DNA of 64,000 bases, from the NCBI RefSeq assembly GCF_037042905.1, contig NC_087250.1:7938001-8002000 (forward strand), read 5' to 3'. The notes under the pieces were generated by a model that saw nothing but the letters and a program-made list of their open reading frames with translations, was not told the origin of the DNA and made no database searches. Both the position numbers and the translations under genes were made by a program. Numbering within the stretch: the stretch's first letter is position 1; each line of letters opens with the position of its first letter. Positions 41,601 to 63,746 of the stretch are shown in pieces. The stretch is from Lytechinus pictus (Eukaryota).

Positions 41601-44361
41601 TTTCCTGATTCTTCAATGGTGAAGACAATCATCTATTTGTACTTCCTAAACAATTATGAATGATTTAAGAGCCAAACTAGCTGAAATATGATATCTCTAC
41701 TGTTAATTATTTATGTAACAATTGGCTATCCATACTTAAACCACAACTTCAAACCTGAGTTTAAGTTAAACCCGACTTCAGAATACGGGCCCCCAGTCAG
41801 TAATCTTTGAGCATAGATTACACTTGATTCTACACTCGCTCCAGAACAAAGGAAATGGCTATTTTGGCTTGTTCATCCTATTGTTCTGTACCTGAGCGTG
41901 TATTTTTTAGTGTAAAATTACTTTCACACTCAAGATTACTGACTGCCACTGTATCTCACATAGAATACTTACATGTAATATTGACTGGCCTCGAGGGGAA
42001 CATAAAATATATTGCCCGCATTGAAATCATATTTGCCTGAGTCTTTAGACTAGGGCAATATGGTTCTCTTAAGGCCAATTGTTGTTTCCTGAAAGAAGCC
42101 AGTCAATATATTTATTATTATCCAAATCAGATATCTAGAGCAAAATTGTGTAAATTTAGATACGTATACCCTTTCAGAATGTGATTCTATTAATTCATGT
42201 TGAGCAGGCTGTGCCTCCAAGCTTTACCATGGTGACATATTTGAAATGTCGCAGTGTCCAGCGTTTGTCTCATTTTGTTTTACGTTATGACGTATATTAT
42301 GTTGCGCGGATCAATATGACGCGTATCTCTTTCTACATGTATGGATATGCACGGATGTGAGACCAGGGAAAATACAAAGGTATATTTTGCGTCGTCTCTG
42401 CATGCAAAGTCAGTACGCGCATTGAGACTGAGGAAAATACAAATAATATACCTATCCCTTCGCCATATTTATGAAATCTAGGGCAATATGGTCTGTAAAT
42501 TACCAGCTCAGATGTCTGATATATGGGTAATAATTGTCTTTATTGCTGATCTCTTTTCGTATGATTTTCTTCCTAACAATGGGCATCTGATTTGTTGAAT
42601 GCATAGATGAAGAGAGCAAGCATTTCAAGGCTGCATCTGATAAATGGAGACGACTCTTCACCATACAGGAAGATGAGAAGCTTGTCAACTGTAAGTCAAA
42701 CTTCTGGGAAATGTATGAATACCTTAGCATAGTTTTCGAGTAGTACAGCTTTTTCCGTATTTAGTACTGAAAAATTAGAAGAATACTGGTGGTTTATACA
42801 AAATACTGATTTTTAAAGCTCAGTTTTACGTGTTGTCCTATGGTATTTCTTTGAAAGTACTGATTTCCTCACCAAATTACTGATTTTCAGCTTTTAAAGT
42901 ACTGAAGTGTTTATGTTTAGGTTGGCTGCTCTGCCTTCGAGTAACCAACATGTACATGTACATTGAATTTACTATTTGGATACATGTATGTCAGATATTG
43001 ATTTTCTTGTTCTTGTCTTATTAATGTGAGTTTGAATGTTGAAACATGAATACAGTAAATAATATTACAGGGTTATAAAAAAAACAGCAACCCAGGTACG
43101 TGAAATATTTTCTTCATTTGGCCAAAGAATAAGTTAATCTTGCTTGACATTCATTGCTTAACACAGATTTGTTTATAAATGCATGCTTTTATTAATATAT
43201 TGACTAAATATATTTGCATTGCTCAATACACATATTTATTTTAAAGAAACGATAAAACTTTCCCTGTTCTGTTACTGAAGAGACAGCTTCTGTAGAAGGA
43301 GATTTTTTAATTGGTAAGCAGTATGGATTTTGTTTTTATTCAGGCTCTAAATCATCTAGGAAGGCAATAGTTTGTCCCGATGCCCATTAACCATTGATAA
43401 TCACTTATATGACATCAGAGCCACTCGTGCAATAATTTGTTATATTCAACCAATATTTATTCTTTTAGATTACTCCTGTAGCTACCCTCAGGGTTGGCTC
43501 TACTTCAGCGTGGAACATTTCAGTTTTTATTCTTTCCTGATGGGGACCGAGTCCAGGCTCCAAATCAGCTAGAAAGGCAATGGTTTGTCCCGATGCCCTA
43601 TTGGCAATGATTGCTTGATATCACAAGTACCCATGAACTAATTTGTTATATTCAACCGATGTTTATTCTCATAGATTACTCCTGCAGTTATTGGAAAGGG
43701 CGTGTACCTCGCCAGGGCTGGTTGTACCTCAGCGTGGATCATTTCTGTTTTTATTCTTTCCTCATGGGAAACGAGTCCAGGCTCCAAATCAGATGGACAG
43801 AAGTTACAGTAAGTAGAATATAATTCTATTATATAGTCTAACCTGTATTTAAAGGCCGCTCAAGGGGGACAAGAAAAGTGGTCCTCATGAGCAAGTGGTC
43901 TCTAATAATGCAGAGGTTCCTGTAATATGACTCATGGGGAAATCAAACTAAATGAAGTAATAAAATAGGTTTGACTATATCCTCTTCTTGTAAAGAACAT
44001 ATCAGCCAATATCTTTACACCCTTCAATCCATCATCATCATCACCATCATCATCACCACCATTCAACCACTACCACCACCATGATCATCATCATCACCAC
44101 AATTCAACCACCACCACCACCATGATCATCATTATTAACATCACCATCATCGTAATCACCATCATCTTCATCATCACAATCATCATCATTATCATTATCA
44201 TCATCATCACCATTATCATTGTCATCATTACCACCACCACCATCATGACCATCATCATCATGATGATCATGATGATCATGATCATCGTCGTCATCATCAT
44301 CATCATCATCACCATCATCATCAACATCATCACCATCGTCATCATCATCATCATCATTATT

Positions 44362-44393
<32 letters not shown>

Positions 44394-44402
44394 TATTATC
44401 AC

Positions 44403-44447
<45 letters not shown>

Positions 44448-44480
44448 TATTATTATCATCATCATCATCATTATTATCAC

Positions 44481-44537
<57 letters not shown>

Positions 44538-45046: not shown

Positions 45047-48000
45047 TCATCACCACCATCACCATCACCATCATCACCACCATCACCATCATCATCATCA
45101 CCACCATCACCATCATCACCACCATCACCATCATCATCATCACCATCATCACCACCACCACCACTGCCACCATTATCACAACCACCACCGGTCCATACAA
45201 TCATCATCATCACTAAAGGTAATCTTGCTTTTCCTTCTTCCCTAGCACCTGGAAAGGAGCAACTCTGTTCTATTTCCCGAGAGTATACGAGTGACGACCC
45301 GAGAGGGGCGGTATTACTTCTCCATGTTCGTCCATCCCGAGGAAACATTCCAACTGATGGAGCAGCTTGCCAATCTAGCCATGCGCCAGCTCCTCTCCGA
45401 AGAAGGCTTCTCAGAAGATCGTAATCTGCCGGACAGATCAAAAGTCAAGTGAGGCAACAACTTCTTGACTTTTTCATAATGCTAGATTTGATAATATTTA
45501 TAGTACTTAGTAATAATAATATGCAACTTTTTACAGCTTTATTTCTTCTAAATCCTGGCTATAGCATGGCTACTCTGATTAAGGTCCCGCTTCATAAAGA
45601 CGTGTTCTTGTAACAAAGGCATGATTTCTGTAACAACTTTACCATTAGCCAATCAGATAGAAGAATTTCAGTAGCTTTTAACTGTTGTAGCAAATTTGTT
45701 ATAACAAGTTTTATGAAACAGGCCCCAGGTTCAAGCATTCAAGGAATTCATTCCTAACGGGTACCCTTTTACCCCAATTAATTGTTGTATGCAATTCCTA
45801 AACATTGTGTGGATCATTGGAATATATGACATTCAGTCTAGATAAATGTTAAATGTACGTATTTTATGTTTTTTCTTCAGGAAAAAAGCTCCCAAGAAGG
45901 TCTCGTCTCTCAAACGTGATTTGGACGCTCGAGCAAGGAGTGAAGCTTACAGGTAAGATTACATTCTGATTACTTTGTTCACGAATTTCATTTTTATGTT
46001 CTTTCCTTTATAACTTGATGTAGGGACAGTGATTTTCCGTTTCAAAAAGTTGCCTTTTCCGTTTCAGAAAATCTCAAATTCCGTTTCAGCATGTCAGAAA
46101 ACGGAAATTCCGTTTCCCCCATAGACTTTGTACACACGGAAAAGTGACAATTCCGTTTACACATTGAATACCGTACACTCGCACTGGTCAAAATTTGTAT
46201 CTGCTACTGTACCAACAACACAATAGAATCCGTTCTAATCGGATCTATGCGGGTGCATAAAATATTTTTCCAACCCCATTTAGCATGCATACATCCTCAC
46301 CTTTCACATTATTAGCATTATTTCATGGTGAAATGATATTTCATCGATAATTTTGGGGTTTTTTGGACATCGTTATCATCAGTCAACGGCTTTTGCCAAT
46401 CCGCCATCTTGGATTTTAAGACCACGATATCGTGCTGTTACATCTTCAAACGTAGAGGGCAGCAACACACGACCGTGCAGTGAACGATATGTGTGTGCAT
46501 GTGAAGCCCAACCCGGCGCCGGCGGCAGGGTACGGGTACGGTGCGGGGTACAATCAAGTGTGCTGATGTCGAGTGCAGTCACGATGTGTGAATTGTTATG
46601 AAAGTAGCGAAGTGAGATCGTGTTTTCTGGGGTTTTGTGGCCATTTAATATTCTCATTTTGTTATGATTTTGGCGTAATTTCTGTTGCTATTCTGTGTAT
46701 TTTGAGGGAAAATACGTTTTCCGTGATTTTCCGTTTGAAATGACACTTTCCGTTTCAAAACACCCTTTCCGTGAATTCCGTCCGTTTTCCGCGATCGCGG
46801 AAAATCACTGTCCCTATTGATGTATTCTAATTCAATAACAAGATCTAATATTCAAAATAAGTTCCCAATCTAACGTCACAAATGATAAACCTTCAATTCT
46901 TTTGAAATCTCTTGATTTTATAACATTTTGTATTATTTTATAGTTTTCCTTAAAACATAGACCAATATTTTGTGCTAATTTTCTGCTTGTTATGAAACCA
47001 AACTCGTAAGGGTGAACTTCCCATTCAAACATGTTTGAATCAGGAAATACTTTAACTCAGTAAATATGTCTGTAAACAAATTCTATTGATCTTTGCCTGC
47101 AGGCGAGTGTTCCGGTTACCTGTTGCGGAGAAGCTGGATGGTAACATCCCTTGTACGCTCTGGGCTCCGTATAGCAAATCACACGTCGGCGGTACCATGT
47201 ATCTCTCAAGGAATTATATCTGTTTTGCTAGCAGGGTAAGTGGATTGCATTTAGCTTTTTGTCATAATCATGGTAATATGCATTAATATAGCACCGTCTA
47301 CCTGAGAATATGGTATTCTGAGGTGCACAAGAAAAACAGAAAGTATAAGAGAGTTTGGATGAGTGTCTTTGACCAAGAACGGATAATTTTAGATAAGATA
47401 AGACTTCAGGTGGGTGTTTCTTAAAGCTGTCCGTAAGTTATGAGCAAGTTTACAAATGACTGGTGATCCTTTCTTGGGCGCTAAATTAGCATCAAAGAAA
47501 ATGTGATGAATATCATTTACCACAAGAGAGGATCACCAGTCATTCGTTAAGTCACTTGTAACATATAGACGGATTTATGAAACACCTACCACCAGTTTAG
47601 ATTTGAAAGTCTCAAATTATGTTTTAATTCGTAAATTTAGTGGCAAATTATTCCAAAGAGAAGGTGCTGCGGCAAAGTATGTCTGTTGACTCTCATAGAG
47701 ATATTTTATAGAATTGGATAACTTAGAATGGGATACCAGTAATATAGTCGTGCCCCCATTCACATATGGGAAGCCTTTCATGGAAAGTTTTGTCGGTGAT
47801 TTTCTCTCACAAATTTTTTTCTTATCCAATCAGATGCAAGGATTTGCAGTAGCTTATAACAATAATAAGAAAAATTTGTCAAATTTCAGTGCCTCATGTA
47901 AAAGGCCCAATACTGCACATGCAAATCATGCAGACCAAAATACTTGCACAGCTACAATAGCTTATTTCAGCATCCACTTCTCAGATGCTTTCTTCAACGT

Positions 48001-49604
48001 TCATAATTCTATTGAAAATGCCCTTCAAATCACAATGGACAGATTGGAGGTCATTGTCAGAAGTTGGTGGACCAGGGGCCCATTTTATAAAGAGTTACAA
48101 CTGTTGTTTTGCCATAATGGCAACTACCATGGCAACAGGGCTCAGCAGCCAATCAGAATCAAGGTTACCATGGTAGTTGCCATAATGGCAAAGTTACAAC
48201 AGTTGTAACTCTTTATGAAACGGGCCCCTGGAAAAGCACATTGTCTTAAGAATCGGTCCGGATGGAAAATTGCAATTACGCCGTTTGTCAGTGACGACAA
48301 GTGCTGCTGTTTTGATTCACCGATATTTGACAAAGGCTGCTTTTTTATGAAGAGCTTTTAACAAAAAATAATCAGCATTATAGAAAGCGTCTGCAAAGGG
48401 ATTGCTATAGTACCCTATTACTAATACAAACATTCATGAATGTTTCTTTCATGACTTTGGCATATATGTTTTAACAAAGATAATCAGCATTATAGAAAGC
48501 GTCTGCAAAGGGATTGCTAAAGTGCCCTATTACTAATATATATATTCATGAATGATTCTTTGGCATAATGTTTATTTTTCAGAAATACATTGGTGCTAAC
48601 AAGTTAGTTAACCCCACCAGTAAATGAACATATTTAGGAAGTGTTCAAGTTCCGCAATCTTTTAGATGTTTAGTTGTGAAGTCAGATGATAAAATATTAC
48701 ATTCAATTAAAGTTCGTTTCTCTGGGCTAACCGGACTTAGTAGTGTTGCGGGCTACATTCAACACTCAGCATGAAGGAGTGCATTTTCTGGTGGGGTTCA
48801 CAAACTTTTTAGCACCATTGTACATGCATGCTCGTGTATTGATATTGAATTTGTTTGTGTTTTTTTTGTGGTCAGATCAAGAATCTTGTTCAGGTGGTTA
48901 TACCGATGAGAGATGTAACGGTGGTGGAGAAGGTTGAGAATTCATCCCTCATCAACCAAGGGCTACATATATCAACAAGAGCTAAGGTAAGAGGATGGTG
49001 GTGGTGGTAGGAGTGGTGGTGATGGTGGTGATGATGATGGTGGTGATGATGACAATGAAGGTGATGATGATTGTGGTGATGATGATGATGATGATGATGA
49101 TGGTCGTGGTAGGAGTGGTGGTGGTGATGGTGATGATGATAATGATGATGATTGTGGTGATGATGATGATGGTGATAGTGGTGGTGATAGTGATGATGAT
49201 GATGGTGGTGATGATGGTGATGATGATGATGATGATGGTGATGATGATGGTGATGATGATGATGAAGATGACCATGATGGTGGGGATGATATGATGATGA
49301 TTGTGATGATAGTGATGTTGGTGGTGATGGTGGTGGTGATGATAATGATGATGGTGATGATGATGGTGATGATAATGATGAGGATGGTGATGGAAAAGGT
49401 TGAGAATTCATCCCTCATTAGCCAAGGGCTACATATATCAACTTGAGCTAAGGTAAGATGATGGTGGTATTGGTAGGAGTGGTGGTGGTGATGGTGATGA
49501 TGATGGTGATGATGGTGGTGATGATGATGATGATGATGATGATGGTGATGGTGATGATGTTGGTGATGGTGATGATGGTGGTGGTGGTGATGATTATGAT
49601 AATG

Positions 49605-49636
<32 letters not shown>

Positions 49637-52600
49637 GATGATGGCCCTAATGTTAATGACAATGATAATGAAGGCAGTGAAAAATGAAAATGAAAAAATA
49701 ATGATGTCATTAACAAATATGGGGATAGTTATCATGTTGTTACTGAAAATAATAGCAATGATAATGACTAATAATAATAAATATTTAATAGCTGATACTG
49801 GTTACTCGTGGTAATAGATTTACTTTACCTAGATGATCAAGTGTTCACAATATATTTTATTTTTTTTAATTTACAGATGACATTCCTCTTTGCACAGCTG
49901 ACTGACAGAGATTTTCTTGTTCAACATATATCTGATTTCCTTGCAAAAACAACCGAAAATGCCAGGTAATGCCTATGGCAAATCGAAAGCAGAATGAAAA
50001 CGACAGACCAATATATATATTGATAATATTGGTAATAATGGTAATGGTGAAGATAATTTATTGTAATAATAATGTTAATAATAATAATAACAATAAATTA
50101 TAATGCACCAAATCCACTCTGCAGAGTGCTCAAGGCGCAATGCCGGAAGGAAGAAAGAGAGAGAGAGAAAAGGAAGTTATACATACATGTATGCAGTGAC
50201 AAATGAGAGAACTTGAGGAGTTATTGACAATTAAGAGTAAGAATCATTAAATAGATGCATATTTAGCTAACGTTTATTGTGTCAACAGAAGTGCATTCAC
50301 AAAAAACCAAGGTAAGATCATTCTAGAGAACAAGATCAGCGGGAGCAAAAGCCTTTATTTCTTATTCTTAATTTTTATGAAGTCTTTCTTTATATAATGT
50401 TTATGTTAGGGTATCAATTCAGTTCAATGACTGTAATCATTCTTGTTTTCATTTACAGACCTACAGGAGACGGCATCTCCATAGCGTCGTCAAACGAGGG
50501 CAGTATAACACGCTCTACCGCTGATCCAATGCAAAGCTTACTAAGTTCAAGCTTCGGTAGCAACGAGAGTGGTAAGTAGGTTCCCTCTTTCTGAATATCT
50601 TACCGTCTGTCCGTGCAATATGAATTTTCATATCCCATCAATTCGGTGGATTCACGATACGGTGCGCCATCTATCCGTTGCAGCAAACAGGCCAAATTTC
50701 TAACTTCTACCTTCTTAACGTACAAAAAAAAAATTGTTTGGATTTTGTGGTACAAATAATAATGCTCTTAACTGTATCATGATGATCTTAAGAAAAGAGA
50801 TATATTTTGCCAAATTTTGAAAAGACATTTACCACAATTATGTCGGCTTTAAAACTTTATTATGAAATGGAAAAATGTTTATATGAAACAAATTTCAGAG
50901 CAAATAAGTTCAGAAAGAAACGGTTTTGTTTCAGAAACTGTTTCAAACAAGCTGGCAATCTGTCACCTTATCATACATAATTATTACCAATGTTTATTTC
51001 TTAGATATATGTATCAGATCTCTTATTTTTCTTGCCAAATTTGCTTTGGCTGTGACAACTTATTGATTGTATAATAGGTCAGTTTGACTATGTGTCTATG
51101 TATTAGGAATTATGTATATTTACTGTTTGTCTGAAAAATTTGTAAATGTTTATACAGTGTAATTATGCTTTTCGAAAATAAAGAACCTTGTGGAAGGGAG
51201 AATTTTTTTTTTCTAACTGCGGGGTCGACATGGCGCGGGTGCATGCAGCGTACAGTACTAGTATACTGTATTGTTACTGTGATGGTTCCAAAATGAAAAC
51301 CATATGGCAAGTATTCACCAAAAACAGTCTAGATTTCGCAAAGAAATAGGCGGGCAAATTTCTCTCCCACCTCCTGGACCCTAGTAAACAGCATACATGT
51401 ATCTGGTCGAGCCTCGTCAGCCAGGGAGAATAATCGTTGCATGCATGCACTTTATAGTACTAGCGCGTGCGCAACAGATTTGACTTTTTCCCGTGAGGCA
51501 TCGCGAATTTCGGCCCGTCTGCTGCAACCGCTAGATGGCGCATCGTATAGTAAATCCACCGAATTAATATCTGTCTCTATTTTTCTTTCGTTCTATATAT
51601 CATAATTACTTTTTTTCTTTGTGTGACGATGCCTGCAGGTTTGCTGTTAATGCTTTCTAATGCTAATATAATTTTAAACATTTTATGGAGACATTGTAGG
51701 TCAGCTTAGGGGCCCGTTTCATAAAGTACTTGCAACTGTTGTAACTTTTGCCATAATGGCAACTACCATGGTAACAGGGCTCAGCAGCCAATCATAATCA
51801 AGGTTACCATGGTAGTTGCCATAATGGCAAAGTTACAACAGTTGCAAGTTGATTTATGAAACAGGCGCCAGATCTTGGATATGAGTAATTATGCCAATAT
51901 TTCTTTTGCTTTTCATGCGAGTATACTTTACATTAAATTTTAAGGCTTTGTACAAATCAAATAGTAAATATCCCTCTTTGTGCATCGGTACAAGATTTTG
52001 CATTGTTGAGTTGAATAGATTATCTTTATTTCGCCTCCTGCGAAAAAAACCATTGCATGAAGAGCAATATTTGCTATTTTTACAATAGCCAATCAATAAC
52101 AATGTTGCATGCACTTTTTGTTCAATGAATTGATGAGGAGCCAATTAAAATTACTCTTTAATCACTCCACTGCCAAGTTTTTTATTACAACCCTCCTTTC
52201 TTCACTTTGGATTTGTTTTGATTAAAGGGAAACTTCACCCTGACAAAAAGTTTATTGTAAAAATAGCAGAAAAATAATAAAAAATATTTGGGAGGGTTTG
52301 AGGAAAATCCATTGAAGAATAAAAAAAATTATTACAATTTCAATTATTTGATTTGTGACGTCATATGCGAGCAGCTTTCCTACATATCAATGGTAAAAAA
52401 TCAATAAAATTTCATTATCTCAGAAAATTGAAAATGGTTTTCATTGTACCTTCAGTACATCAATACACAAATGATTTCACACCCGATCATAAAAGAAAAT
52501 AAAAAATTAGTCCTCACGAACCATCAAAAAATTATATTTATGCATTTTATATTACATCACAATATGGAGTGGCTGCTCGTTTATGACGTCACAAATCAAA

Positions 52601-55600
52601 AACTTGAAATTCGAATAGCTTTCTAAATCTTTAATGGATTTTCCTTAAATCTTCACCAATATATATTTTCTGTTATTTTTACAGCAAAGTTTTCATCAGG
52701 GTGAACTCCCCCTTTTATATGTTTGAGATAAATATTTCATAATTTTATTTTTTTCTTTTCATCAGATCCTAGCTCTAACTACTCATCCATGATGTATTAC
52801 TCTACAGTGTTAACAGACCTCAACGATTATGATAATAATGCATGTGAGTTCCATAGACATCAGTGGGCGTATTTACACTTTCACATTTTCCTTAGTCTTG
52901 TTAATCTACAGTGTTAACAGAAATTATGATAATGCATGTCAATTCCATTTACATGAGTGGGTGTATTCACATATTCACATTTTCATTGGTCTTTATTTCT
53001 CTTTTGTTGAACATGCCTCAACGATTATGATAATAATGCATGTGAGTTTCATAGGCATCAGTGGGTGTATTCATACATTCAAATTTTCCTTAGGCTTTAT
53101 TTACTCTAGAGTGTTAACAGACCTCCTTGATTATGGTAATAATACATGTGAGTTCAATAAACACCCGTGGGTGTATTCACATTTCAACATTTTCCTTAAG
53201 CCTTTCAATTTCTTTTTTTAAGTTAAAAAACTGAATGTAATTGATTCCACTTGTAGGTAATGATTTCGCTGCATAATTTTTAATATTTCCGAAAAGATGT
53301 TTTTCCTTTGTATGAAGGTCATTCAATTTTCATTTTATTTCATTCATCTTATTTATATTCCTCGATGCATGCTGCTTTCTGGCAGCAATATTTGTTTTCA
53401 TTTTTGCCCCTGAAACAAGCAGTAATTAACCCAATCACACCGTATTATTTATGTTCCAGCTCATCTGAGTGTTAAATATTCATGACTATCTATTGAATAT
53501 TCATTTTAGCCCCTGAAACAAGTAGTGAATCAGTGTCGCATTTCAGCTCCAACCTGCCTTACTGTAAGATATTCATGAAAATTGAATATTCATTTTAGTC
53601 CCTGAAACAAGCAGTGAGTTGCCCAATCACGGCGTAGCATTTCAGCTCCAACCTGCCTTAGTGTTTAATATTCATGACTCTATTGAATATTCATTTTAGC
53701 CACTGAAACAAGCAGTGAGTCACCCAATCACAGCGTAGCATTTCAGCTCCAACCTGTCTTAGTGTTTAATATTCATGACTATCGAATATTCATTTAGCCA
53801 CTGAAACAAGAAGTGAGTCGCCCAATCATGGTGTAGCATTTCAGCTCCAACCTGCCTTAGTGTTTTATTATTCATGACTATCTATTGAATATTCATTTTA
53901 GCCACTGAAACAAGCAGTGAGTCACCCAATCACAGCGTAGCATTTCAGCTCTAACCTGCCTTAGTGTTTTATTATTCATGACTATCTATTGAATATTCAT
54001 TTTAGCCCCTGAAACAAGCAGTGAGTCGCCCAATCACAGCGTAGCATTTCAGCTCCAACCTGCCTTAGTGAAGGTATTCAACAGAAGAGGATCAGATGAA
54101 ATACCGGCAAGAGAGACGGTGAAAGAGCATCTATGGAATATGCACTTCAAAGAGTATGGGAGGTGAGTAGAAAGAGATAGAGAGAGAGGAAGGGGGAGGA
54201 AGAGGAGACAGATGGGGAGAAGGAGAGGTGGAGAAAAATGGGGAGAGAGAAAAAAGAAAGCAAGATAGAGTGAAAGAACATCTGTGGAATATGCACTTCA
54301 TTGAAAATGGAAGGTTAGTGGCAAGAGAAAGATGGGTAGGGGGAGTGAGAAATGGGAAGAGGGGGTAGGGAAGGAGAGAACGAGGGAGGGGGGAGGGGAG
54401 AAAGGGAGTGGGGATAACTGAAGCAAGAGAAACAGTGAAAGAAAGAGAGATTGCAGGAGGAGGGAGAGAATGAAAGAGAAGGGGGGAGGGAGGGAGGGGG
54501 GGATAAAAACTTCAAGAAAGACATTGAAAGAACATCTAAGATGGAATATGCACTTCAAAGAGTATGGAAAGTTGGTAGAAAGAAAGAGAGAGAAGGGGAG
54601 GAGAGAGATGGAGGGGGGGGAAGAAGAAGAGGGAGAGAGAGAAGTGGGAGGGAGAGGGAGGAATGCAAAGCAGTGAGAGAGACGGCAAACGAACATCTAT
54701 GGAATATGCACTTAAAAGAGTATGGAAGGTTAGTAGATGCGAGGAGATAGAGAGAGAAAGGGGGAGGGGGAGGAAAGGAGGGGAGAGGGTGGGGGAGAAG
54801 GAGAGATGGAGAAAAATGGGGAGAGAAAGTGGGGGAAAAAGTGGAGGAGGGGGAATAAAAAAAAGAAAGCAAGATAGAGTGAAAGAACATCTATGGAATA
54901 TGCACTTCAGAGAGTATGGAAAGTTAGTAAAAGAGGTAGAGAGAGAGTGGGAGAAAATAAAAGATAGAGGGAGAGAGAGAGGCAGGTGGTGATGGAAAGA
55001 GAGGGGGATTAAAACATTTGTAGAATGAAAAAAATGACATGTCTAGGGTGGATTCAAATATTGTTTCACAGATGTATAATGAGGAGAAAATTAACACATT
55101 ATAATGAGCAGAAAGTTGTAAGTGCCTTGTCTAGTTTTGCTTGCAGGGGTGTATGTATGTACCGTACAGTTGAGATGCAACATCTAATTATTAAAGGGAG
55201 TCCACCTAATAAAAAGTTGATTGAATAAAAAAGAAAAGTCCAAGCAGTATAATGCTGAAAATGTCATCGAGATCAGATACAAAAGAAAGAAAGTCATGAC
55301 ATCTTATTTTTAAACCAGACCATGCGCATATTTTATAATATGAATTATCCAATATTTCAAGTTTTGCAGATTGGACAAGAAGGAGAATCTTCATCAAATC
55401 ACAGTAGGTTTAATACCAAAATGGCAATTCGATATGTGCAGGGAGGTATCAAACTTTGTTTCATGTTATTATGGGAGAAAATTAAAAGACCCTTGTCTTG
55501 TTTTGCTTGCAGGGGTGTATGCATGTATCGTACAGTTGAGACTCAGCATCTAATTATCAAAGGCCTTCCTGATAGCCTAAGAGGGGAGATGTGGATGCTG

Positions 55601-58402
55601 TACTCTGGCGCCATCAATGAGGTTAGTGCCCTTTGAAGATAAATGCCAGTTGGAATGATTTCGAAATAAGTTCATATCGAATCCAATAAAATGACCACCT
55701 AAGAATTCGGTGGAATCAAAATACGGTGTACCATCTATTCGTTGCAGCGAAAAAGCTGAAATTCGCAATGCATCATGGGAAAAAGTCAACATCTGTTGTG
55801 CATGCTGAGTGTGAATGCATGCATCCGATTATTCATCGCTGGCCGCCACGGCTCGACCGGATATGCTGTTTACTAGGTTTATTCTGTTTGCAGTGCTATT
55901 TCATTATGCCACGATGGTGAAGAAAACTGATTCAGTTAGTATTTCCAGGCAATAATGGATGACCTGAATGAGAGTTGAGCTTCAAAATTGAACCTGTACT
56001 TCTAAAAACTTGTTTCACAATTTGGCTTTCCATAGTTAAACCACAGCTTTAGACCAGAGTTTAAATTAAACCAGAGTTCAGAATATGGGCCTTTAGGTGG
56101 TATTCTGATGGCCATGGTTTAGTTAAACCCGGTTTAACTTAGACCACACTATTATGGAGTGCCACTTGTCAACTTTTATTCACAAATAATTATTCTTATC
56201 CTGTTGCAAAAAGTTGTCAAATAATAATAGAATCCTGAAATTGGAAGAATAGGAAAATACAAAAATATAATGAATTTTTATGAATTTATTGGTACGTAAT
56301 GATTTCCATGAATACGGAAGAAGTATTCTGAAGCCAGCATTCCATACAAGTGTGGTATAAAGTACTAGAGTGAGACCTATATGTAATTATCAAAATACCA
56401 CCAATTGTGTTCATATGAAAAGCATGATATTATAGTGGAATATTGTTATTGTTTATTGTAAAATTTGGTCTCATATTTCAGATGGCAACACAACCTGGGT
56501 ATTACCAATCATTAGTTGAACAGAGTCTGGGGAGAGAGACTATTGCTACCGATGAGATCGAGAGAGACCTTCATAGGTAATATATTGGTTTATATTCATC
56601 TGGGGAAAATATTATTACAATGATGGGGTTTCCATAGAATTGAGGTTGATCAGATCAATCGTAACTCTTTGTAAGACGGGACCTTGCTACATTTGTTTTA
56701 TATCCTACTTTAATAAGTTAGAATAATAGATATTGATAATCTAGTTCTTGTACTCATAGTTAATAAAAAAAAAAAAATCTGAACAAAATATAGGTAACGC
56801 GCTCTGCTGACTGACCTATTTCGGAACGCGGATTAGTGCCTGCGCCGTCCCTTCACGGGACTTGCCCGGTAGAGACACCTTGCTGACCGAGAGATTGCAT
56901 TATCTGTCACGGAATAGTCAATTTTCCTTAGTGGGCGTTTTGTTTTGACGGCATAACTAGAATATCCATGGTTACGTGATGCTATTTGAACCAATCACTA
57001 TACAGGATTTGATTTATGTAGGATATAATAAAAACTATTTGATTAAAACCCTGTTCTATTTAGATCACTACCCGAGCATCCTGCCTTCCAGTCCGAGCTC
57101 GGTATAGCAGCTTTGAGGAGAGTTCTTACAGCGTATGCCTACCGTAATCCAACCATTGGTAAGAACCTTAAGGTGGGTTAGGAGGGGGGGGTGAGGTAAG
57201 GTATAGCAGCGTTGAGGAGGGTCCTTACAGCGTATGCCTACTGTAACCCAACCATTGGTAAGAACCTTAGAGTGGGGTAGGAGGGGGGGGGGGGCAGTGG
57301 CGGACCGTGACCCGGAGGAGACAAAGCATTGGAGGGGCACAGCATTGTTCACAAACAATACAGTGCCCCTCCAATCATTTGTCTCCTTTGGGTCACCATC
57401 CGCCACTGGGGGGGGGGGGGTGAGTTGGGGTATAGGAGCGTTGAGGAGGGTTCTTATCGCGTATGCCTATCGTAACCCAACCATTGGTAAGAATCTCCGG
57501 GTGGGATAGGAGAGAGAGAGAGAGATAGATGAGATGATTGTGTATTATTATTGTGTCTTAATACGGAGTTCAGATTGAATTGAGAAATGTTCCTTTTCAG
57601 GACTACCCACATTCTGAGCTACTGTATGATTCTCTTTTGCGTTATGTAATTTTGTTTGATTCATTTGTCATTATTTGTCATTATTTTAACTGTCATGTTC
57701 ACATGTGCTAAAAAAATTGTAGTGTTTAATTTCTCATATGTATAAGCTAGTGGAGGAAACATTTCTATGTAATTTTTTTATTGAATATCATAGATGAATA
57801 AATCAAAATGAATTTAATTGAATAGGTATACATGTAGGATGTTATAGTAGAAGTATTAAAGACCATCAGCAAATTTCGATGGTTTTAATATTATACCCCG
57901 GCCTGTGACATAAAGCTCAGTGATTAATCATAGTGCTGAGTTTTGCAATTGATCATGCACATTAATCAATGGAATCAATCGTAGTAATCCGACCTACGAT
58001 CATTTTCTAAGCTTCATGTTACCGGGCCCAGTACATCAGTCCAACATAGCCTATATTTCTGGCAAAAAAAGAAAAGAAATTATTTTGGGGGGCTACTTTT
58101 CACAACATATTGTCTACATGTACATCTGCTACATTGGGTAAGCTTTAACACTGCAATGAATGGGAATTTTCCAGGGCTCCTTTTTGTGTTTTCTGGGCCG
58201 AGTCTTACAAAAAGTTACGATTGATCCGATCAATCACAACTATGGAAAGCCAGCAACGTCAGAGCGTGGATCCCCTAAGATAGTATCAGAGCTGCCAAGT
58301 AGTACGATTTTTCCGTATTTAATACGTTTTTGCAACCGAAATACGGCAGTACGTTTTTTCTTTAAAAAATATGTTTTTTGTATTTAAAAAAAAAAAAAAA
58401 TA

Positions 58403-58440
<38 letters not shown>

Positions 58441-61400
58441 ATCGAAATTTATTGAGAAAAATCATCTCTATATGTCTCTATTTCATAAAACGTACACAAA
58501 TATGGTTATTAGATCAATGTAATTTCAGGTAACTTGTTTTTTTTTTCAAATCATTTTGTAAAAACCAGGGTGAGATATACACAAGTTTCAATGATTTTTT
58601 TTTCAATCTGCAAGAGCAGTGCACATTTTAGCTTGCATGCAGCTTGAGCGCCGTGATGGGCGAGTGCGCCAAGCATTTTAATATGAAATACACTTTTTTT
58701 GGGAAAAATACAAAATATTTATCTCACACGGTAAAAATACTGATTTTTTTGTCAAAATACTGATTTTGGGGGATAAGAATACTGAAAATGCAAAATACAA
58801 CTTGGCAGCTCTGTAGTATATTAAACATTTGAAAAATGGGTCTCGTTCGCAAGTGTAAATACAATAAGTTAAAATAGAATATTGGAAATAATAAGATGGT
58901 GAGTAATAGCGAGAAATGATAAAAAGATGACAGAGATACGGGACGATACAAAAAAACTAAAAGGAAAACAAAGACATGACGAAGAATAGAGGGGAGAGAG
59001 AAGGAATTAAGTACTGAAAGGGGAGTGAGAGGGCAAAGATAAAGTGGGGGGAGAGAGACAGATAGAGAGGGAGGCACACACACACGCAGATTATGTGGAG
59101 AGAAAGGGTCAGAAGGAGAGAGGGGGGGGGGGAAAGAACGAGAGTGCAAACGTAGATCAAAGAGAGTGTGACTTAATAGCGTGCTTAGACAATACTAAAA
59201 ATATAAAACTAATTAATTACTTTGGTAAGACAGTAACATAAATATTTTTAGTTTTCTCTTAAAGGAGTGGATAGAGGGGGCCTGTTGAACATCTTTATGG
59301 AGTGAATTCCAAAATTTGGGGGCGGTGAAAATAAAAGTATTTTGCGCAAAACGAGTTCTTAAGATAGGTAGATGAAAGTTATCGGCTTGTCTGGTAGGAT
59401 ACCTATGAAAATTGTTATTTTGAGAAAACAAATCATGAAATGCAAAAGGAACCATATTGTTTTTATACATGTACATAAACTGTCCAAGCTGAAATTGGTA
59501 TAAGTCTTGAATCTTTAAAATTTTATAATCAAGGAAAAGCGGATCAGTGTGAGAACGGGGGTGTGAGAATGAAATAATACGAAGGGCTTTTTTTTGTAAT
59601 AATAATATTTTGTTAAGTAAACTTTGGTGGGTATTGCCCCAAACAAGGATCCCGTAGTTGATACATGTATATGGTAATATAAGAGGTGTGAGAATGAAAT
59701 AATACGAAGGGCTTTTTTTGTAATAATAATATTTTGTTAAGTAAGCTTTGGTGGGTATTGCCCCAAACAAGGATCCCGTAGTTGATATATGGTAATATAA
59801 GAGAAGAATATAATGTAAGTAGAGAAGTAACAGGAATAAACGTTTTCAACCTATTTATGATGCCTATATTTCGGGATATTGTTTTACAAATATTATCAAT
59901 ATGGCATTTCCAGCAGAGTTTGTTATCTACACGAACTCCCAAAAATTTAATTGAGGAGACACTTTCCAATTTAAAATCTTCAATAAAAATGTCAAAAGGT
60001 AAGGAATCTATGGTATTACTGAATAAAATGTATTTAGTTTTTTTAAGGTTAATTGATAATTTGTTAGCTCTGATCCAATTCAAAATATTAGTTAATTCAG
60101 AGTTTATTATGTTAACAAGTGTAAGCGGATCATTGTGAGAGAAGAATAGATTTGTGTCATCAGCAAAAATAATGAAAGATAAAATGTTAGATGCTCTGCA
60201 AAAATCATTTATATATAAAGTAAACAAGAGAGGTCCCAGAATACTTCCTTGTGGCACACCACAATTAATATTACACAAATTAGAGGAATGGTCATTGAGA
60301 AAAACAAATTGATTTCTGTTAAAGAGGTAATTCCTGAACCACTCCAAGGCCTTCCCACGTATGCCATAATGCGATAATTTATGAAGTAGGATGTCATGAT
60401 TAATAGTGTCGAAGGCCTTGGAGAAGTCCAGGAAAATACCGACCATGTGTGAGGATTTATCGACAGCATGAGCAACTTTTTCAACAAAGGATAATAAGGC
60501 GTGAATTGTACTGTGCTTTTCTCTAAATCCAAACTGGAAATTTGTATATTCATGCATTCTTTGTTTTATTGAAAATTCACCATGCCTCTCTTTGTTTACA
60601 AAGGGCATTTTTCAAATTTCCTGCAGAAAAAATTATGACACTGATGGATTTTCATAGAGTTATGATTGATTGGATCGCTCATAACTCTTTGTAAGACGGG
60701 GCCCAGGGCTATATCGAGCATGTCGGGGGCAAAATCGACTCGACCCTATGTAAACATTCCCCTGCTAATATTGATATTTTATCTATTAGGTTACTGCCAA
60801 GCAATGAATATAGTAACTTCAGTGCTGTTACTATATGCCAACGAAGAAGAAGCGTTCTGGCTACTGACGGCTGTATGTGAACGGCTCCTTCCCGACTACT
60901 ACAACACTAGGGTCATTGGAGCACTGGTGGATCAGGGTACGTACATCCAGTTATCTGATATGGGGCCCAATCTCACAATACTTTTACCAATATTTTATCA
61001 GTTCTTTATCAATACTCGTACAGGAAATAAAACAAGGACTTAAATGTTTACGAACTCCAACTTTCTTTAGAAAGTATCGATAATTCTTCTTTTAGCTACA
61101 CCTTTAATGTACAATCACTTTATGAGTTTCTTATTTCATTACATTCTTAAAGAGGTCCACTCCACTCCCCAATCCAGAATAAAAGTTATTAGAGTGGTCA
61201 AGGACTCGTTGTTGTTATAAAAAGGGTTCAGTTGAGAACTGCAGTCAGACTAGACTTAAATGATCACGACTTGACTTTCTAAATAAGATATCAGATTGCA
61301 GGTTTCAATTCAGTTTCAGTTTAGTTTATTTCACTTCCATTTTCTGATAATAAACATAACAAACATATATATACATATGTATAAATGTACAAAACAGAAT

Positions 61401-63746
61401 AAGTGTCATAAGAATACTTCAATAATCAATTAACAAATTCGTAGGAAATAGATGAAATGTATACAATTTTTGTTCAAGATACATTTTGATGGTTTCGACA
61501 TCGCAGTTTACAGAGCACTAATAGTATGCCCAGTCACATCCTTTGGATTGTGATGTCAAACATTGATCCAAAAAGATGTAAAATAACGCATTGTTGTAAC
61601 ATTAGGCATAGCTGAAACACTACCTGTTGTAACAGAGGCCTCTATTAGAGCATTTTTAGCGCTAAAAACGTGTCTGTGCGGCCGGTCGAGGGCTGTGCTT
61701 TCGTCAATATGATCCAATTCAGAGGGTATCATTATCAATGCCAATCAATATTGTATCAAGGCCACCGCACACCTTACGACCCGACGGGTCTACGACTGGC
61801 TTGCGACTGAGTGAGGGGAGATGTGACGTCACAGCACTTGTCAGCTTGAGTCGCGGACCGGTCAGAGACAAGTCGCAAGGAAAATCGTAAGGATTTGACA
61901 TGTCGAATCCTTATGACTGGATCGCAAGCTCAATCCAACTTCCAGCCAATCAGACAGCAAAGTTGCACAACGCATATATGATAAACAACGCGCATACGCA
62001 GTAGTAAGCGCATTTTCTCAGTTGCTATGGAAAAAGCAAAAAGCGCATGCGTGAGTCGCAGACAGCGTAGTAGTCGGATCGCAAGGTGTGCGGTGTCGAG
62101 GCTTATGACCACCTTGCGATTTCATCTCTACTCAGTCAGTCGCAAGCCAGTCGTAGACCAGTCGGGTCGTAAGGTGTGCGGTGGGTGGCCTTTAAATGAT
62201 AATATGTATCCTAATCAAATGATTAGCTAAAATCTGTCCGTGACCAGTCATTTACTTTAGCTAACTTGAAAAAGTTGCTAATGACTGGTGCGAATGACTA
62301 GTTAAATTGACCAATCATGGTTTTAAAATAAGGATTAAAACAAGGATCCTCACTATCACTATTTTTTTATAAAACATTTAAAACGTATAAATAAAACGTA
62401 TAAAACGTATAAATAAAACGTATAAATGATGCACGTCAATTATGTATAAAACGTATAAAACGTATAAATGATGCACGTCAATTTGTTTGGGAATTCGAAT
62501 CATTACACACTCTTGCTACCTTTGAATCTGTTCAAGTGCCCTCGGCTGAGCCTCGGGCATGTTAAAACTGTTCCAATGGTACCTTGTGCACCTAATTGTT
62601 CCTATTGCCTGTGATGATGTGCATTATTTTTGTATTATATGACACCTAGATGGATCCTTGTCATTTGATTGGTTGTGTGATATCGATCATTCAGCCCATT
62701 TTACAATGACGTCATCATCCGTGCAATTTTGGATCCATACGATTTTGTCCATTGCACGTGTGCATCGAGACCGCAGGGGCCACAAATAAAAACAGTGGTG
62801 TTTGCAGTGCGCATGTTGTGTGTAAGTGACAATCAACAGACAAGCTCACACCGCGTGAGCTTATCTTTGATCAAAATACATAAATCTCAAATGATAAAGG
62901 ATCTATTTTAGTTGTCATATACTAGTAAACCAAATAATGAATATTCTTTTCATTCTTGCAATGTAAAGAATACTTCATTCGGTGATAGATGAAATGAATG
63001 ATCCATTCTAAGAGGCATATCCGAGTTGATGGATCAATTCATCTTTCACCTCGTGAGGTATCCTGTCCATGGCACCCCTAAACATTCATTATTTGTATAC
63101 TGTATTACTCAGGTGTATTTGAAGCCCTTACCAAAGAAACCATGTCTGAGCTATACAAGTTTGAAACAGTTCACTTGCCCTCAGCTAATCCTTGGGCATA
63201 TTAGAACTTTTCCAATGGTACACGGTGCATATAATTCTTACTAATGCCCTTAATGGTGTGTTTTATTTGTATACTATCTTGCCCAGGTGTATTTGAAGCC
63301 CTAACCAAAGAAACCATGTCTGAGCTATACAAGTTTGAAACAGTTCACTTGCCCTCAGCTAATCCTTGGGCATATTAGAACTTTTCCAATGGTACACGGT
63401 GCATATAATTCTTACTAATGCCCTTAATGGTGTGTTTTATTTGTATACTATCTTGCCCAGGTGTATTTGAAGCCCTAACCAAGGAAACCATGTCTGAGCT
63501 ATACAAGTTTGAAACAGTTCACTTGCCCTCAGCTAATCCTTGGGCATATTAGAACTTTTCCAATGGTACACGGTGCATATAATTCTTACTAATGCCCTTA
63601 ATGGTGTGTTTTATATTTATACTATCTTGCCCAGGTGTATTTGAAGCCCTAACCAAGGAAACCATGTCAGAGCTATACATGAAGATGGAAGAACTAGGAA
63701 TGCTGAGTATGATCTCTCTATCTTGGTTCCTTACAGTCTTTCTAAG
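23620..63746 (+). CDS. TBC1D9: TBC1 domain family member 9-like Rab GTPase-activating protein (GRAM-GRAM-TBC); multi-exon, 3' end beyond window
   Basis: 18 GT-AG exons join in frame. The translation [32 protein letters not shown]...[16 protein letters not shown]...[19 protein letters not shown]...[16 protein letters not shown] matches the TBC1D8/9 family as I recall it, including the TBC IxxDxxR and YxQ catalytic fingers. Confidence 0.95.
25590..26112. mobile_element. Cluster of about three related MITEs (gtgtttcataaagctg..cagctttatgaaacac); another copy at ~47409-47590
   Basis: Repeated inverted termini, Harbinger-like size. Confidence 0.6.
26207..26370 (+). CDS. TBC1D9: TBC1D9 coding exon 2 ([35 protein letters not shown]...ELYH)
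   Basis: cag acceptor, gtaagt donor, phase compatible with exon 1. Confidence 0.92.
26405..27450. repeat. Degenerate (GAT)n microsatellite with an internal ~345-bp duplication
   Basis: Direct reading; ggttgcaaatggtgatggtaacaatgat at ~26470 and ~26808. Confidence 0.95.
27756..27833 (+). CDS. TBC1D9: TBC1D9 coding exon 3 ([26 protein letters not shown])
   Basis: tacag/gtaag, conserved HWEWxEQNL. Confidence 0.9.
29204..29775. mobile_element. Kolobok-like MITE
   Basis: TTAA-AGGGCAA...TTGCCCT-TTAA. Confidence 0.7.
30023..33913 (+). mobile_element. 5'-truncated CR1/L2-group LINE inserted in a MITE
   Basis: ORF1 C-terminal remnant ([17 protein letters not shown]), ORF2 with PHD-APE-RT, 3' stem-loop near 33765-33821, AATAAA plus (TCAA)n tail. 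Confidence 0.92.
30405..33577 (+). pseudogene. LINE ORF2: PHD finger, apurinic endonuclease, reverse transcriptase; frameshifted near 33250
   Basis: C4HC3 [31 protein letters not shown]; an (AT)n slip splits 30405-33281 from the C-terminal frame ending at 33577. Confidence 0.9.
33971..34564. mobile_element. Kolobok-like MITE
   Basis: TTAA-AGGGATGGTCCGGGCTG...CAGCCTGGACTATCCCT-TTAA. Confidence 0.8.
35041..39730 (-). mobile_element. Near full-length single-ORF CR1-group LINE (Daphne/Rex1-like), antisense in TBC1D9 intron 3
   Basis: APE+RT ORF, ~1-kb 3'UTR, AATAAA and (TAC)n tail at ~35041-35070; 5' boundary approximate. Confidence 0.88.
36092..39430 (-). pseudogene. LINE ORF: hydrophobic leader, 2A-like peptide, APE, RT; one in-frame TGA at 38624-38626
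   Basis: ORFs 38624-39430 and 36092-38623 abut in one frame; [37 protein letters not shown]. Confidence 0.9.
40052..40153 (+). CDS. TBC1D9: TBC1D9 coding exon 4 ([23 protein letters not shown]...)
   Basis: cag/gtaaaa, phase 1-1, FExxxDxTxFVxxKI. Confidence 0.85.
40569..41025. mobile_element. Sola2-like MITE
   Basis: GGGCAATTCCA / TGGAATAGCCC termini, 4-bp TSD ATAT, internal gtaacgtgagtaacc repeats. Confidence 0.7.
41504..41791. mobile_element. Harbinger-like MITE
   Basis: GGCCCGTATTCTGAAGTCGGGTTTA inverted termini; fragments at ~1668 and ~56060. Confidence 0.75.
42607..42690 (+). CDS. TBC1D9: TBC1D9 coding exon 5 ([28 protein letters not shown]), start of GRAM1
   Basis: tag/gtaagt, EKLVN motif. 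Confidence 0.9.
43675..43808 (+). CDS. TBC1D9: TBC1D9 coding exon 6 ([32 protein letters not shown]...), GRAM1
   Basis: atag/gtaagt, highly conserved GRAM sequence. Confidence 0.93.
44030..45213. repeat. (CAT/CAC)n microsatellite, ~1.2 kb
   Basis: Direct reading. Confidence 0.97.
45246..45448 (+). CDS. TBC1D9: TBC1D9 coding exon 7 ([16 protein letters not shown]...[14 protein letters not shown]...)
   Basis: ctag/gtgagg, MEQLANxAMRQLL motif. Confidence 0.92.
45881..45952 (+). CDS. TBC1D9: TBC1D9 coding exon 8 ([24 protein letters not shown])
   Basis: ttcag/gtaaga, LKRDLDARA motif. Confidence 0.92.
46021..46816. mobile_element. hAT-like MITE with 6-bp TSD; relative at ~25292-25522
   Basis: TIR TAGGGACAGTGATTTTCCG, TSD TTGATG, subterminal ttccgt repeats. 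Confidence 0.8.
47103..47235 (+). CDS. TBC1D9: TBC1D9 coding exon 9 ([13 protein letters not shown]...NYICFASR), GRAM2
   Basis: gcag/gtaagt, FRLPxxEKLDG and NYICF motifs. Confidence 0.92.
48075..48228. mobile_element. Palindromic Harbinger-like MITE; sister copy 51709-51869
   Basis: GGGGCCC..ATAAAG..CAACTGTTG arms, near-identical second copy. Confidence 0.75.
48876..48986 (+). CDS. TBC1D9: TBC1D9 coding exon 10 ([24 protein letters not shown]...)
   Basis: tcag/gtaaga, IPxRxVTxVEK motif. Confidence 0.9.
48990..49645. repeat. (GAT/GGT)n microsatellite in two blocks, part of the exon-10 duplication
   Basis: Direct reading. Confidence 0.92.
49877..49965 (+). CDS. TBC1D9: TBC1D9 coding exon 11 ([25 protein letters not shown]...)
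   Basis: tacag/gtaatg, FLFAxLxDRDFLV motif. Confidence 0.92.
50459..50571 (+). CDS. TBC1D9: TBC1D9 coding exon 12 (Ser-rich linker)
   Basis: tacag/gtaagt, open frame, phases fit exons 11 and 13; weak homology. Confidence 0.75.
50641..51564. mobile_element. MITE with ATTCGGTGGATT..GCGCCATCTA inverted termini; fragment at ~55704
   Basis: ~33-bp imperfect TIRs; TSD unresolved. Confidence 0.65.
52226..52713. mobile_element. Kolobok-like MITE
   Basis: TTAA-AGGGAAACTTCACCCTGA...TCAGGGTGAACTCCCCCT. Confidence 0.7.
52803..53200. repeat. ~100-bp degenerate tandem repeat (about 4 units)
   Basis: gtgttaacaga..ttatgataat..gtgggtgtattcaca recurs. Confidence 0.7.
53398..54068 (+). repeat. ~100-bp tandem array of the exon-13 acceptor and 5' half (7 units, the last is the live exon)
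   Basis: tattcattttagcc(c/a)ctgaaacaagcagtgagt..tttcagctccaacctgcctta repeated. Confidence 0.9.
54006..54162 (+). CDS. TBC1D9: TBC1D9 coding exon 13 (...[33 protein letters not shown])
   Basis: ttag/gtgagt, KExxWxxHFxEYG motif; several alternative upstream acceptors exist. Confidence 0.85.
55513..55621 (+). CDS. TBC1D9: TBC1D9 coding exon 14 ([36 protein letters not shown]), TBC start
   Basis: gcag/gttagt, GxPxxLRGExW motif. Confidence 0.92.
56482..56576 (+). CDS. TBC1D9: TBC1D9 coding exon 15 ([32 protein letters not shown])
   Basis: tcag/gtaata, arginine-finger IERDLHR. Confidence 0.93.
57064..57158 (+). CDS. TBC1D9: TBC1D9 coding exon 16 ([32 protein letters not shown])
   Basis: ttag/gtaaga, conserved TBC sequence. 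Confidence 0.93.
58287..58813. mobile_element. hAT-like MITE with 6-bp TSD TAGTAT
   Basis: TIR CAGAGCTGCCAAGT / ACTTGGCAGCTCTG. Confidence 0.75.
59213..60545 (-). mobile_element. 5'-truncated CR1/L2-group LINE RT fragment with a ~126-bp internal tandem duplication
   Basis: [26 protein letters not shown]; duplicated gtgtgagaatgaaataatacgaagggc at ~59561 and ~59687; splits a MITE (58193-58261 / 60546-60705). Confidence 0.88.
60790..60936 (+). CDS. TBC1D9: TBC1D9 coding exon 17 ([26 protein letters not shown]...GALVDQ)
   Basis: ttag/gtacgt, glutamine-finger YCQAM. Confidence 0.95.
61760..62190. mobile_element. Harbinger-like foldback MITE
   Basis: GGCCACCGCACACCTTACGACCCGAC inverted termini. 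Confidence 0.75.
63090..63678 (+). repeat. ~174-bp tandem array of the exon-18 acceptor and 5' part (4 units, the last is the live exon)
   Basis: caggtgtatttgaagccct..accatgtc.gagctatac at ~63111, 63284, 63458 and 63632. Confidence 0.92.
63635..63746 (+). CDS. TBC1D9: TBC1D9 coding exon 18 ([38 protein letters not shown])
   Basis: ccag/gtaagt, [12 protein letters not shown] motif. Confidence 0.92.

Follow-up and report, generated by a model that had tools for sequence, protein, structure and literature searches.

Probable mirage-type tandem repeats straddling splice junctions of seven exons in a TBC1D9B-like gene of the sea urchin Lytechinus pictus

A stretch of 64,000 nucleotides (nt) of the Lytechinus pictus genome (NCBI RefSeq assembly GCF_037042905.1, contig NC_087250.1, positions 7,938,001 to 8,002,000 of the forward strand; hereafter the window, numbered from its first letter) contains a TBC1D9B-like gene, in which the ends of several exons are repeated, together with their splice junctions, in the flanking introns. 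Examination of these partial copies, here called echoes, revealed that seven of the 19 exons have repeat arrays straddling a junction, eight arrays in total with 21 echo junctions; four of the arrays are on the acceptor side (exons 6, 14, 15 and 19, below e6, e14 and so on) and four on the donor side (e10, e13, e14 and e17). The repeat unit crossed the exon-intron boundary in all eight arrays, with the authentic junction as the terminal unit, and none of the 21 echoes held both splice sites of its exon or represented a whole-exon copy. The arrays are probably mirage-type minisatellites, that is, real tandem duplications with a junction-straddling unit, which arose as by-products of slippage or unequal exchange and are ignored by splicing.

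The host gene was identified through the translated exon 45246-45449, whose matches were sea urchin proteins designated as TBC1 domain family member 9B-like. Exon mapping by tblastn with the Lytechinus variegatus protein P0001, followed by refinement to exact GT-AG junctions, placed 19 exons on the + strand of the window between positions 23620 and 63746, encoding 706 amino acids (aa) free of stops, of which 5 differ from P0001. Over 611 aa, corresponding to the 16 spliced exons 4-19, the window translation was 100% identical to the L. pictus protein P0122. The authentic exons with echoes were the following:

43675-43808, + strand: authentic exon 6, GRAM-domain region, 134 nt
48876-48986, + strand: authentic exon 10, with a (TGG/TGA)n microsatellite starting 4 nt past the donor
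52766-52843, + strand: authentic exon 13, 78 nt, 26 aa
54006-54162, + strand: authentic exon 14, with echo arrays both upstream and downstream
55513-55621, + strand: authentic exon 15
57064-57158, + strand: authentic exon 17
63635-63746, + strand: authentic exon 19

Exon 13 is probably a cassette exon, since it was absent from the L. variegatus isoform X2 (P0123). Two annotation features of the gene were noted in addition. The L. variegatus proteins P0001 and P0121 are separate 1396-aa models on the same 47.8-Mb contig with the identical 5 differences from the window, which means that the locus is duplicated or that one of the annotated models is redundant. In an older L. pictus annotation the gene was split at intron 15 into the models P0125, which reads past the exon 15 donor (55622-55633; ending ...NEVSAL), and P0124, which begins with an open reading frame (ORF) within intron 15 at about 55815-55955.

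The echoes were detected by aligning each exon with 250 nt per side to 2.5 kb on either side, followed by a search for junction copies. The repeats were visible in three independent DNA-level methods, namely Tandem Repeats Finder (TRF; periods of 99, 104/202, 106 and 174), a direct-repeat search and self-blastn. Six of the eight arrays were contiguous. Their positions were as follows:

43341-43553, + strand: acceptor echo of exon 6, junction 43469, AG kept at 43467-43468, 75% identity
49386-49670, + strand: donor echo of exon 10, junction 49452, 466 nt downstream of its source
52891-53218, + strand: donor array of exon 13, three echoes, junctions 52937, 53041 and 53147
53397-53995, + strand: acceptor array of exon 14, six echoes, junctions 53407, 53510, 53599, 53700, 53798 and 53902, AG in 5/6 and TG in the outermost unit
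54258-55013, + strand: donor array of exon 14, four echoes, junctions 54313, 54570, 54728 and 54922
55099-55197, + strand: acceptor echo of exon 15, junction 55147, AG kept, 85-86% identity
57200-57527, + strand: donor array of exon 17, two echoes, junctions 57257 and 57486
62521-63505, + strand: acceptor array of exon 19, three echoes, junctions 63113, 63287 and 63461

The largest echo, that of exon 6, comprised ~121 nt of the end of intron 5 and the first 126 of the 134 exon nt with an internal deletion (matches of 93/126 in the exon part and 97/128 in the intron part); it stopped 8 nt short of the exon end and had no donor, and an extra partial copy of the exon 6 end was present at 43341-43385. 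The e10 echo consisted of the last 67 exon nt, GT and microsatellite (82% identity overall, 61/67 in the exon part). The units of the e13 array, ~104-106 nt long (TRF period 106), joined the last ~38-47 exon nt to ~60 intron nt and had the donors GTCAAT, GTGAGT and GTGAGT. The acceptor units of e14 (~89-107 nt) consisted of ~40 nt of the intron end plus the first 65 exon nt, and were resolved by TRF as 5.3 copies of period 104 with 89% matches. The donor echoes of the same exon had the last ~51-58 exon nt plus GT and were located within a GA-rich intron, units a and d being parts of a higher-order repeat of about 610 nt. A 268-nt spacer lies between the single e15 echo (47 intron nt and 51 exon nt) and its source. 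Both e17 units were 99 nt in length (57200-57298, 91%, and 57429-57527, 86%; TRF period 99) and included the last 58 exon nt, GT and ~40 intron nt, while the e19 units of 174 nt were composed of 129 intron nt and the first 45 exon nt (TRF period 174, 3.4 copies, 97%). Altogether, the 20.4-kb span contained about 3.0 kb of echo-derived DNA, including 927/1162 nt (80%) of intron 13 and 855/1350 nt (63%) of intron 14. The start of intron 14 (54168-55013), which hosts the four e14 donor echoes, is purine-rich (GA/GGA) over about 850 nt with a GC skew of +0.46. Furthermore, a 20-nt repeat at 39977-40057 (3.4 copies, 72% matches) reaches the exon 4 acceptor; its last unit seems to hold the AG and the first 6 exon nt, the earlier units being without AG, and it may be a ninth mirage of the short-unit type.

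The original prediction, made from the letters of the window alone, had listed seven arrays on six exons. All seven were present at the expected place and with the expected copy number by self-alignment and junction search, and all six exons were real, but exon 13 with its three-echo donor array had been missed, which raises the totals to seven exons and eight arrays. Because the 78-nt exon 13 had been overlooked, the earlier exon numbers were one too low from exon 13 on (earlier exons 13, 14, 16 and 18 correspond to e14, e15, e17 and e19, respectively).

The association of duplications with junctions was quantified in a self-blastn census blind to the exon map. Out of 151 same-strand hits with an offset of 3 kb or less, 68 rows were kept after removal of short, low-complexity (3-mer entropy 4.3 or less) and self-overlapping rows, and these were grouped by eye into 21 local direct-duplication loci. 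Eight of the 21 loci in the window overlapped exons and 13 did not; in the dense part (42.5-64 kb) 8/10 loci straddled a junction. Among the loci outside exons were duplications of 113 nt (48356-48561) and of 125 nt (59560-59803, overlapping a reverse-transcriptase ORF) as well as minisatellites at 3.7-8.1, 19.3-23.3 and 25.7-27.5 kb. With random placement of whole arrays the expected number was 3.9 for the window (P 0.027), 3.3 for the gene span (P 0.005) and 3.8 for the dense part (P 0.006). With random placement of founding units, for which at least 15 nt in the exon were demanded, whole exons were disallowed and one microsatellite-like locus without a unit was omitted, it fell to 1.3/10 in the dense part (P about 2e-6) and 1.0/12 in the gene span (P about 7e-7). 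The true expectation lies between these two nulls. A Pfam scan for a control gene, using five ORFs upstream of the gene (8.6-17.9 kb) and one ORF of the tandem duplication at 5246-5638, gave no family.

These figures bear on the possibility that small tandem duplications are equally common everywhere and that those bearing exon sequence are simply recognized more easily. Exon-free duplications did occur in the window (5236-5791, 7717-8121, 19274-20553, 20854-21522, 22360-23274, 25681-26114, 48356-48561 and 59560-59803), the whole-array null leaves about a two-fold excess (8 vs. 3.3-3.9; P 0.005-0.03), and the window had been selected for the pattern. However, the census was made without the exon map and the dense part still gave a junctional share of 8/10, with one of the two remaining loci sitting in a retrotransposon ORF, and the founding-unit null expects 1.3 (P about 2e-6 to 4e-6). 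The excess is also not explained by sensitivity, because intron-only duplications of 67-70% identity were picked up by the census. Moreover, the same association was seen in amphioxus by independent authors (PMC3087553, PMC3902484). Chance combined with biased recognition is, therefore, decidedly unlikely as the source of the pattern.

The position of the junction within the repeat unit varied profoundly, with an exon share from about 0.14 (e10, 67/466 nt) to about 0.6 (e14 acceptor, 65/104 nt). Such scattered breakpoints, not fixed to the splice site, indicate that the junction as such is not where the process cuts: the segments that it produces or retains happen to include the junction. The junction-focused duplication or retention process proposed in the original prediction is thus upheld as far as the excess in the window is concerned (8/10 vs. 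1.3 or 3.8), but not in the sense of cutting at the junction. A mutational bias, in which exon edges are hot spots for breaks or fork stalls (for example, owing to exon-positioned nucleosomes or co-transcriptional structures) and the excess is there at birth, would agree with the four- to six-fold excess over the founding-unit null, with the occurrence of arrays on both sides of e14 and on all three neighbours e13, e14 and e15, with units of 99-224 nt in 6/8 arrays, which we compare to the nucleosome scale, and with the recurrence of the phenomenon in a second phylum, as described in the amphioxus papers. We nevertheless consider it rather unlikely: the breakpoints varied relative to the junction, exons 1-5 had no clear array in the exon-versus-flank alignment, no enzyme or motif is indicated by the sequence, and survival bias can supply part of the excess with the authentic copy evolving slower.

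A convincing breakpoint motif was seen at e10 only. Here the left breakpoint was located within the exon motif GGTGGTGGAG, which is similar to the intronic (TGG/TGA)n beginning 4 nt past the donor, and mispairing of the two would yield exactly the 466-nt junction-straddling duplication. The sequence TATTCA was tried as a breakpoint motif of the e14 acceptor array and discounted; it was found on both partners, but 4-5 nt off the breakpoint. Two other origins were ruled out, namely transposon capture of exon pieces, as each copy adjoins the exon from which it came, with orientation and register unchanged, and duplication of whole exons, as a complete exon with acceptor and donor was found in 0/21 echoes.

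The copies differed considerably in age. Identity to the authentic unit ranged from 61% to 98% and between echo units reached 99%. Private indels were present (10-nt deletions in units b53500 and a52891 and a 3-nt insertion in b54515), and units a and f of the e14 array had stops when read in the frame of the exon. The echoes are, judged by their sequence, non-coding DNA in decay. The authentic copy was the centroid of the e13 array (authentic-echo identity 84-85% vs. echo-echo identity 73-76%), a star pattern that is expected where selection constrains the authentic copy alone. Inner units of the e14 acceptor array were 88-96% alike and the outermost 70-81%; the corresponding values in the e19 array were 98-99% and 87-93%, and its two full echoes had identities of 98% with the authentic unit and 99% with one another. 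An older e19 unit appears to be split into 62521-62638 (76%) and 63089-63157 (87%) with ~450 nt of other DNA between them. The higher-order repeats and the homogeneity of inner copies point to unequal exchange. Between its two echo units the e17 array contains a 114-nt near-perfect palindrome (57295-57408) with 55-nt arms, 85% complementary, and flanking G runs. This palindrome resembles a small foldback insert or one similar to a miniature inverted-repeat transposable element, and its contig depth was very high in four of four public runs.

Because the copies have diverged and contain indels, stops and inserted DNA, the arrays must be old and not assembly errors. Mis-assembly of haplotypes, or collapse or expansion of repeats by the assembler, is accordingly an exceedingly improbable explanation: most copies differ by 4-39% with private indels, foreign DNA is present within the arrays, and haplotype duplication cannot make 100-nt head-to-tail units of graded divergence. 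On the other side, the two full e19 echoes are 99% alike, a level at which an error in copy number is possible, and no array was bridged by the contigs of four public runs (X1, X16, X4 and X9), whose comparison with 52600-63800 was dominated by dispersed repeats and in which stretches free of contig cover (e.g., 53348-54095 in X4 and X9) are uninformative. An assembly artefact is excluded, except as regards how many of the most recent e19 units there are.

Two positions in the protein indicated how the echoes relate in time to the coding exons. At aa 470, P is encoded in the window and T in the second L. pictus model, P0125, and the three echoes nearest exon 14 carried the T codon (CC|ACT vs. 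CC|CCT). The match is suggestive because the authentic unit differed from these proximal echoes at so few positions (about 3/65 in the exon part), and it suggests either that echo and exon have undergone unequal exchange or conversion or that the polymorphism was already there before the most recent duplications. The e6 echo and the L. variegatus proteins have T at aa 190 and the window exon has N; since the echo shares T with L. variegatus, it is older than the substitution.

The splice signals were mostly retained: GT in 10/10 donor echoes and AG in 10/11 acceptor echoes, i.e., in 20/21 altogether, in line with the earlier observation that many echoes have intact AG or GT. In the donor arrays of e10, e13, e14 and e17 the first unit spans the boundary, so that among the repeated donors the authentic one lies farthest upstream. 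The donor echoes of e14 had GTT at +1 to +3 in 4/4 cases (GTG in the authentic donor), while each of its acceptor echoes had AG followed 15 nt later by a GTGAGT-like motif. The annotated proteins used authentic junctions only (P0122). Among the four public runs compared, chosen from 24 listed runs each with <1/10 of words and none labelled RNA, two contigs of RNA type (record 1 of X1 and record 9 of X16) covered 54006-54160 and then diverged from the DNA, ending 2 bases before the annotated end of exon 14 (54162), which fits authentic exon 14 splicing. A protein search with the ORF of the e6 echo found no candidate and has no weight for either reading.

A role of the echoes as decoy splice sites, offered in the original prediction, gains no support from these proteins and contigs, and neither does a role as raw material for exon or intron birth, as no new intron position was found and the existing introns are merely longer. 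Considered as a rival in its own right, the retention of echo sites for tuning of splicing, for instance of the inclusion of cassette exon 13, is very unlikely. The arrangement that would favor it is that exon 13, missing in the L. variegatus isoform mentioned above, is followed by three decoy donors and then by six decoy acceptors of exon 14 in an intron largely filled with echoes, with AG/GT in 20/21 echoes vs. about 16 expected and the GTGAGT-like motif in every e14 acceptor echo. In contrast, the decay of the echoes is neutral-like (indels, stops, insertions), the weaker GTT is present in all four e14 donor echoes, shared ancestry inflates the AG/GT count, the contigs contain the authentic exon 14 block only and give no transcript support for echo use, and repeated sites were reported silent in amphioxus and in human F7 (PMC3087553, PMC3902484, PMC1557585). 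That the intron most filled with echoes comes directly after the probable cassette exon is a lead only.

According to the explanation that we prefer, by-product minisatellites ignored by splicing, a segment of about 99-466 nt would have been duplicated head to tail through slippage during replication or through unequal exchange between short motifs of similar sequence, with one breakpoint within the exon and its partner in the adjoining intron. Such a founding event would leave one exon complete and a truncated exon end with AG or GT in the intron. As the relationships between the copies indicate, the arrays then expanded and were reshuffled by further unequal exchange, and the echoes decay as non-coding DNA. 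It is through their position that the echoes would be ignored by splicing. On the donor side, by analogy with the F7 experiments, the authentic site would be the first encountered in the 5'-to-3' direction; on the acceptor side, likewise by analogy, only the last copy would be continuous with the remainder of the exon and its donor. As a consequence, the introns lengthen, and echoes and coding exon would occasionally swap sequence. The excess at junctions could result either from a regional mutation bias or from arrays persisting longer when they are anchored on an exon copy under constraint.

Several points weigh against this explanation. The enrichment tests are post hoc, with a window picked for the pattern and 10-21 loci grouped by eye; the e15 echo, with its spacer, is not strictly tandem today; for e19, the youngest array, in which echo units are 99% alike, the number of copies is that of one assembly; and the coincidence at aa 470 concerns a single nucleotide. 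The AG/GT dinucleotides were kept in 20/21 echoes vs. 16 expected from local divergence (P 0.017 assuming independent copies), a count which is inflated because the echo copies share ancestry; it could hint at a constraint on the echoes that is unpredicted by a pure by-product model. Low-level or regulated use of echo sites is compatible with the RNA data at hand.

A broader reading would be that invertebrate deuterostomes with high polymorphism (amphioxus, sea urchins) share a systematic and biased process of duplication across junctions, rather than scattered accidents, with exon edges seeding or preserving minisatellites that act as a main motor of intron growth, place repeated splice signals next to alternative exons such as exon 13 and return variants to the coding sequence through unequal exchange, as the P/T difference at aa 470 would suggest. 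This is possible, although doubtful. If the more restricted explanation by junction-straddling by-products holds, mirages are not confined to amphioxus and are also dense in an echinoderm, which opens the genome-wide questions of whether duplication is favored at exon edges or better survived there, how much it contributes to intron length and whether silent sites affect splice choice. A practical hazard is that echoes yield spurious tblastn hits and may mislead gene prediction.

Other repeats and retrotransposon-type ORFs were noticed in the window apart from the arrays. Trinucleotide microsatellites adjoin exon edges: (TGA/TGG)n at 26378-27483, 8 nt past the exon 2 donor (26370); a (TGA/TGG)-type block at 48990-49671, 4 nt past the exon 10 donor (48986); and a 1.1-kb (CAT/CAC)n block at 44030-45189, ending 56 nt ahead of exon 7. 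Long ORFs of the type found in retrotransposons without long terminal repeats (non-LTR) are located in introns 3 and 17 (30351-33281 on the + strand, 36092-39445 and 59613-60611 on the - strand), the last of which had a Pfam RVT_1 match and overlaps the 125-nt tandem duplication 59560-59803. Upstream, AT-rich minisatellite blocks with 18-31-nt units (3672-4538 and 6501-7320) flank a 274-nt tandem duplication (5236-5791) and mirrored ORFs are present at 4612-4987 and 6052-6427, so that the layout of 3672-7320 resembles one large foldback-type element.

The known systems closest to the urchin arrays include the amphioxus mirages. By later citations, the founding paper on mirages is said to be that of Canestro et al. 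from 2002. Mirages, a little-known type of minisatellite that has so far been reported in amphioxus only, have been described in the globin genes BflGb6/BflGb9 and in the Adh3, TnC and PGBD5 genes (PMC3087553, PMC3902484). In the globin mirages of Ebner et al. (2010, PMC3087553) the units were 150-160 bp, both exon boundaries were hit, many units had AG/GT, the reverse transcription PCR was normal and haplotypes with 6 and 3 units occurred; earlier cases at Adh3 and other loci were cited there, and PGBD5 and TnC were added as mirage genes by Pavelitz et al. (2013, PMC3902484). The urchin arrays have in common with them the junction-spanning units at 5' and 3' boundaries, the retention of many AG/GT, homogenized inner units with diverged edges and overlapping unit sizes (10-160 bp there vs. 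99-466 nt in the urchin). Regular splicing may likewise be undisturbed in the urchin, as far as gene models and two contigs go. In contrast to amphioxus, the host is an echinoderm, the arrays are far denser, with eight on 7/19 exons of a single gene, and many of the copies are old, decayed (61-75%) and interrupted by insertions. Full-text literature searches found no echinoderm report of mirage-type repeats among the matches listed (15 of 61 in the sea urchin search), and the papers using the term mirages either dealt with amphioxus or meant something unrelated.

A second counterpart is the variable number tandem repeat (VNTR) in intron 7 of human F7, a 37-bp minisatellite whose first unit lies across the exon 7-IVS7 boundary and in which the most upstream donor is chosen and the downstream pseudo-donors are silent (Borensztajn et al., 2006, PMC1557585). 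As in the four urchin donor arrays, the authentic 5' splice site comes first and the repeated pseudo-sites after it. However, the F7 units are identical 37-bp repeats, compared to diverged units of 99-466 nt in the urchin, the F7 case has no counterpart to the acceptor-side arrays, and the site choice in the urchin is read from sequence. In the Rogers AGGT model, introns are gained through tandem genomic duplication (Hellsten et al., 2011, PMC3265369). This likewise involves a local duplication copying splice signals and has been proposed as a raw material for introns; a 2009 work of Gao and Lynch, cited in PMC3087553, reportedly dealt with internal gene duplication. The urchin duplications differ in straddling existing junctions and in lengthening existing introns only: the within-exon duplication with a newly spliced intron that defines the AGGT model was not found, there being no additional intron in the 19-exon model and no new exon in the gene models. 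Tandem exon duplication with mutually exclusive exons also has in common a local tandem duplication within the gene and exon-derived copies in introns, but the urchin echoes contain no whole exon (0/21) and carry frameshifts and stops. By the defining features testable here the urchin arrays are, therefore, mirage minisatellites, in a new phylum and at an unusual density.

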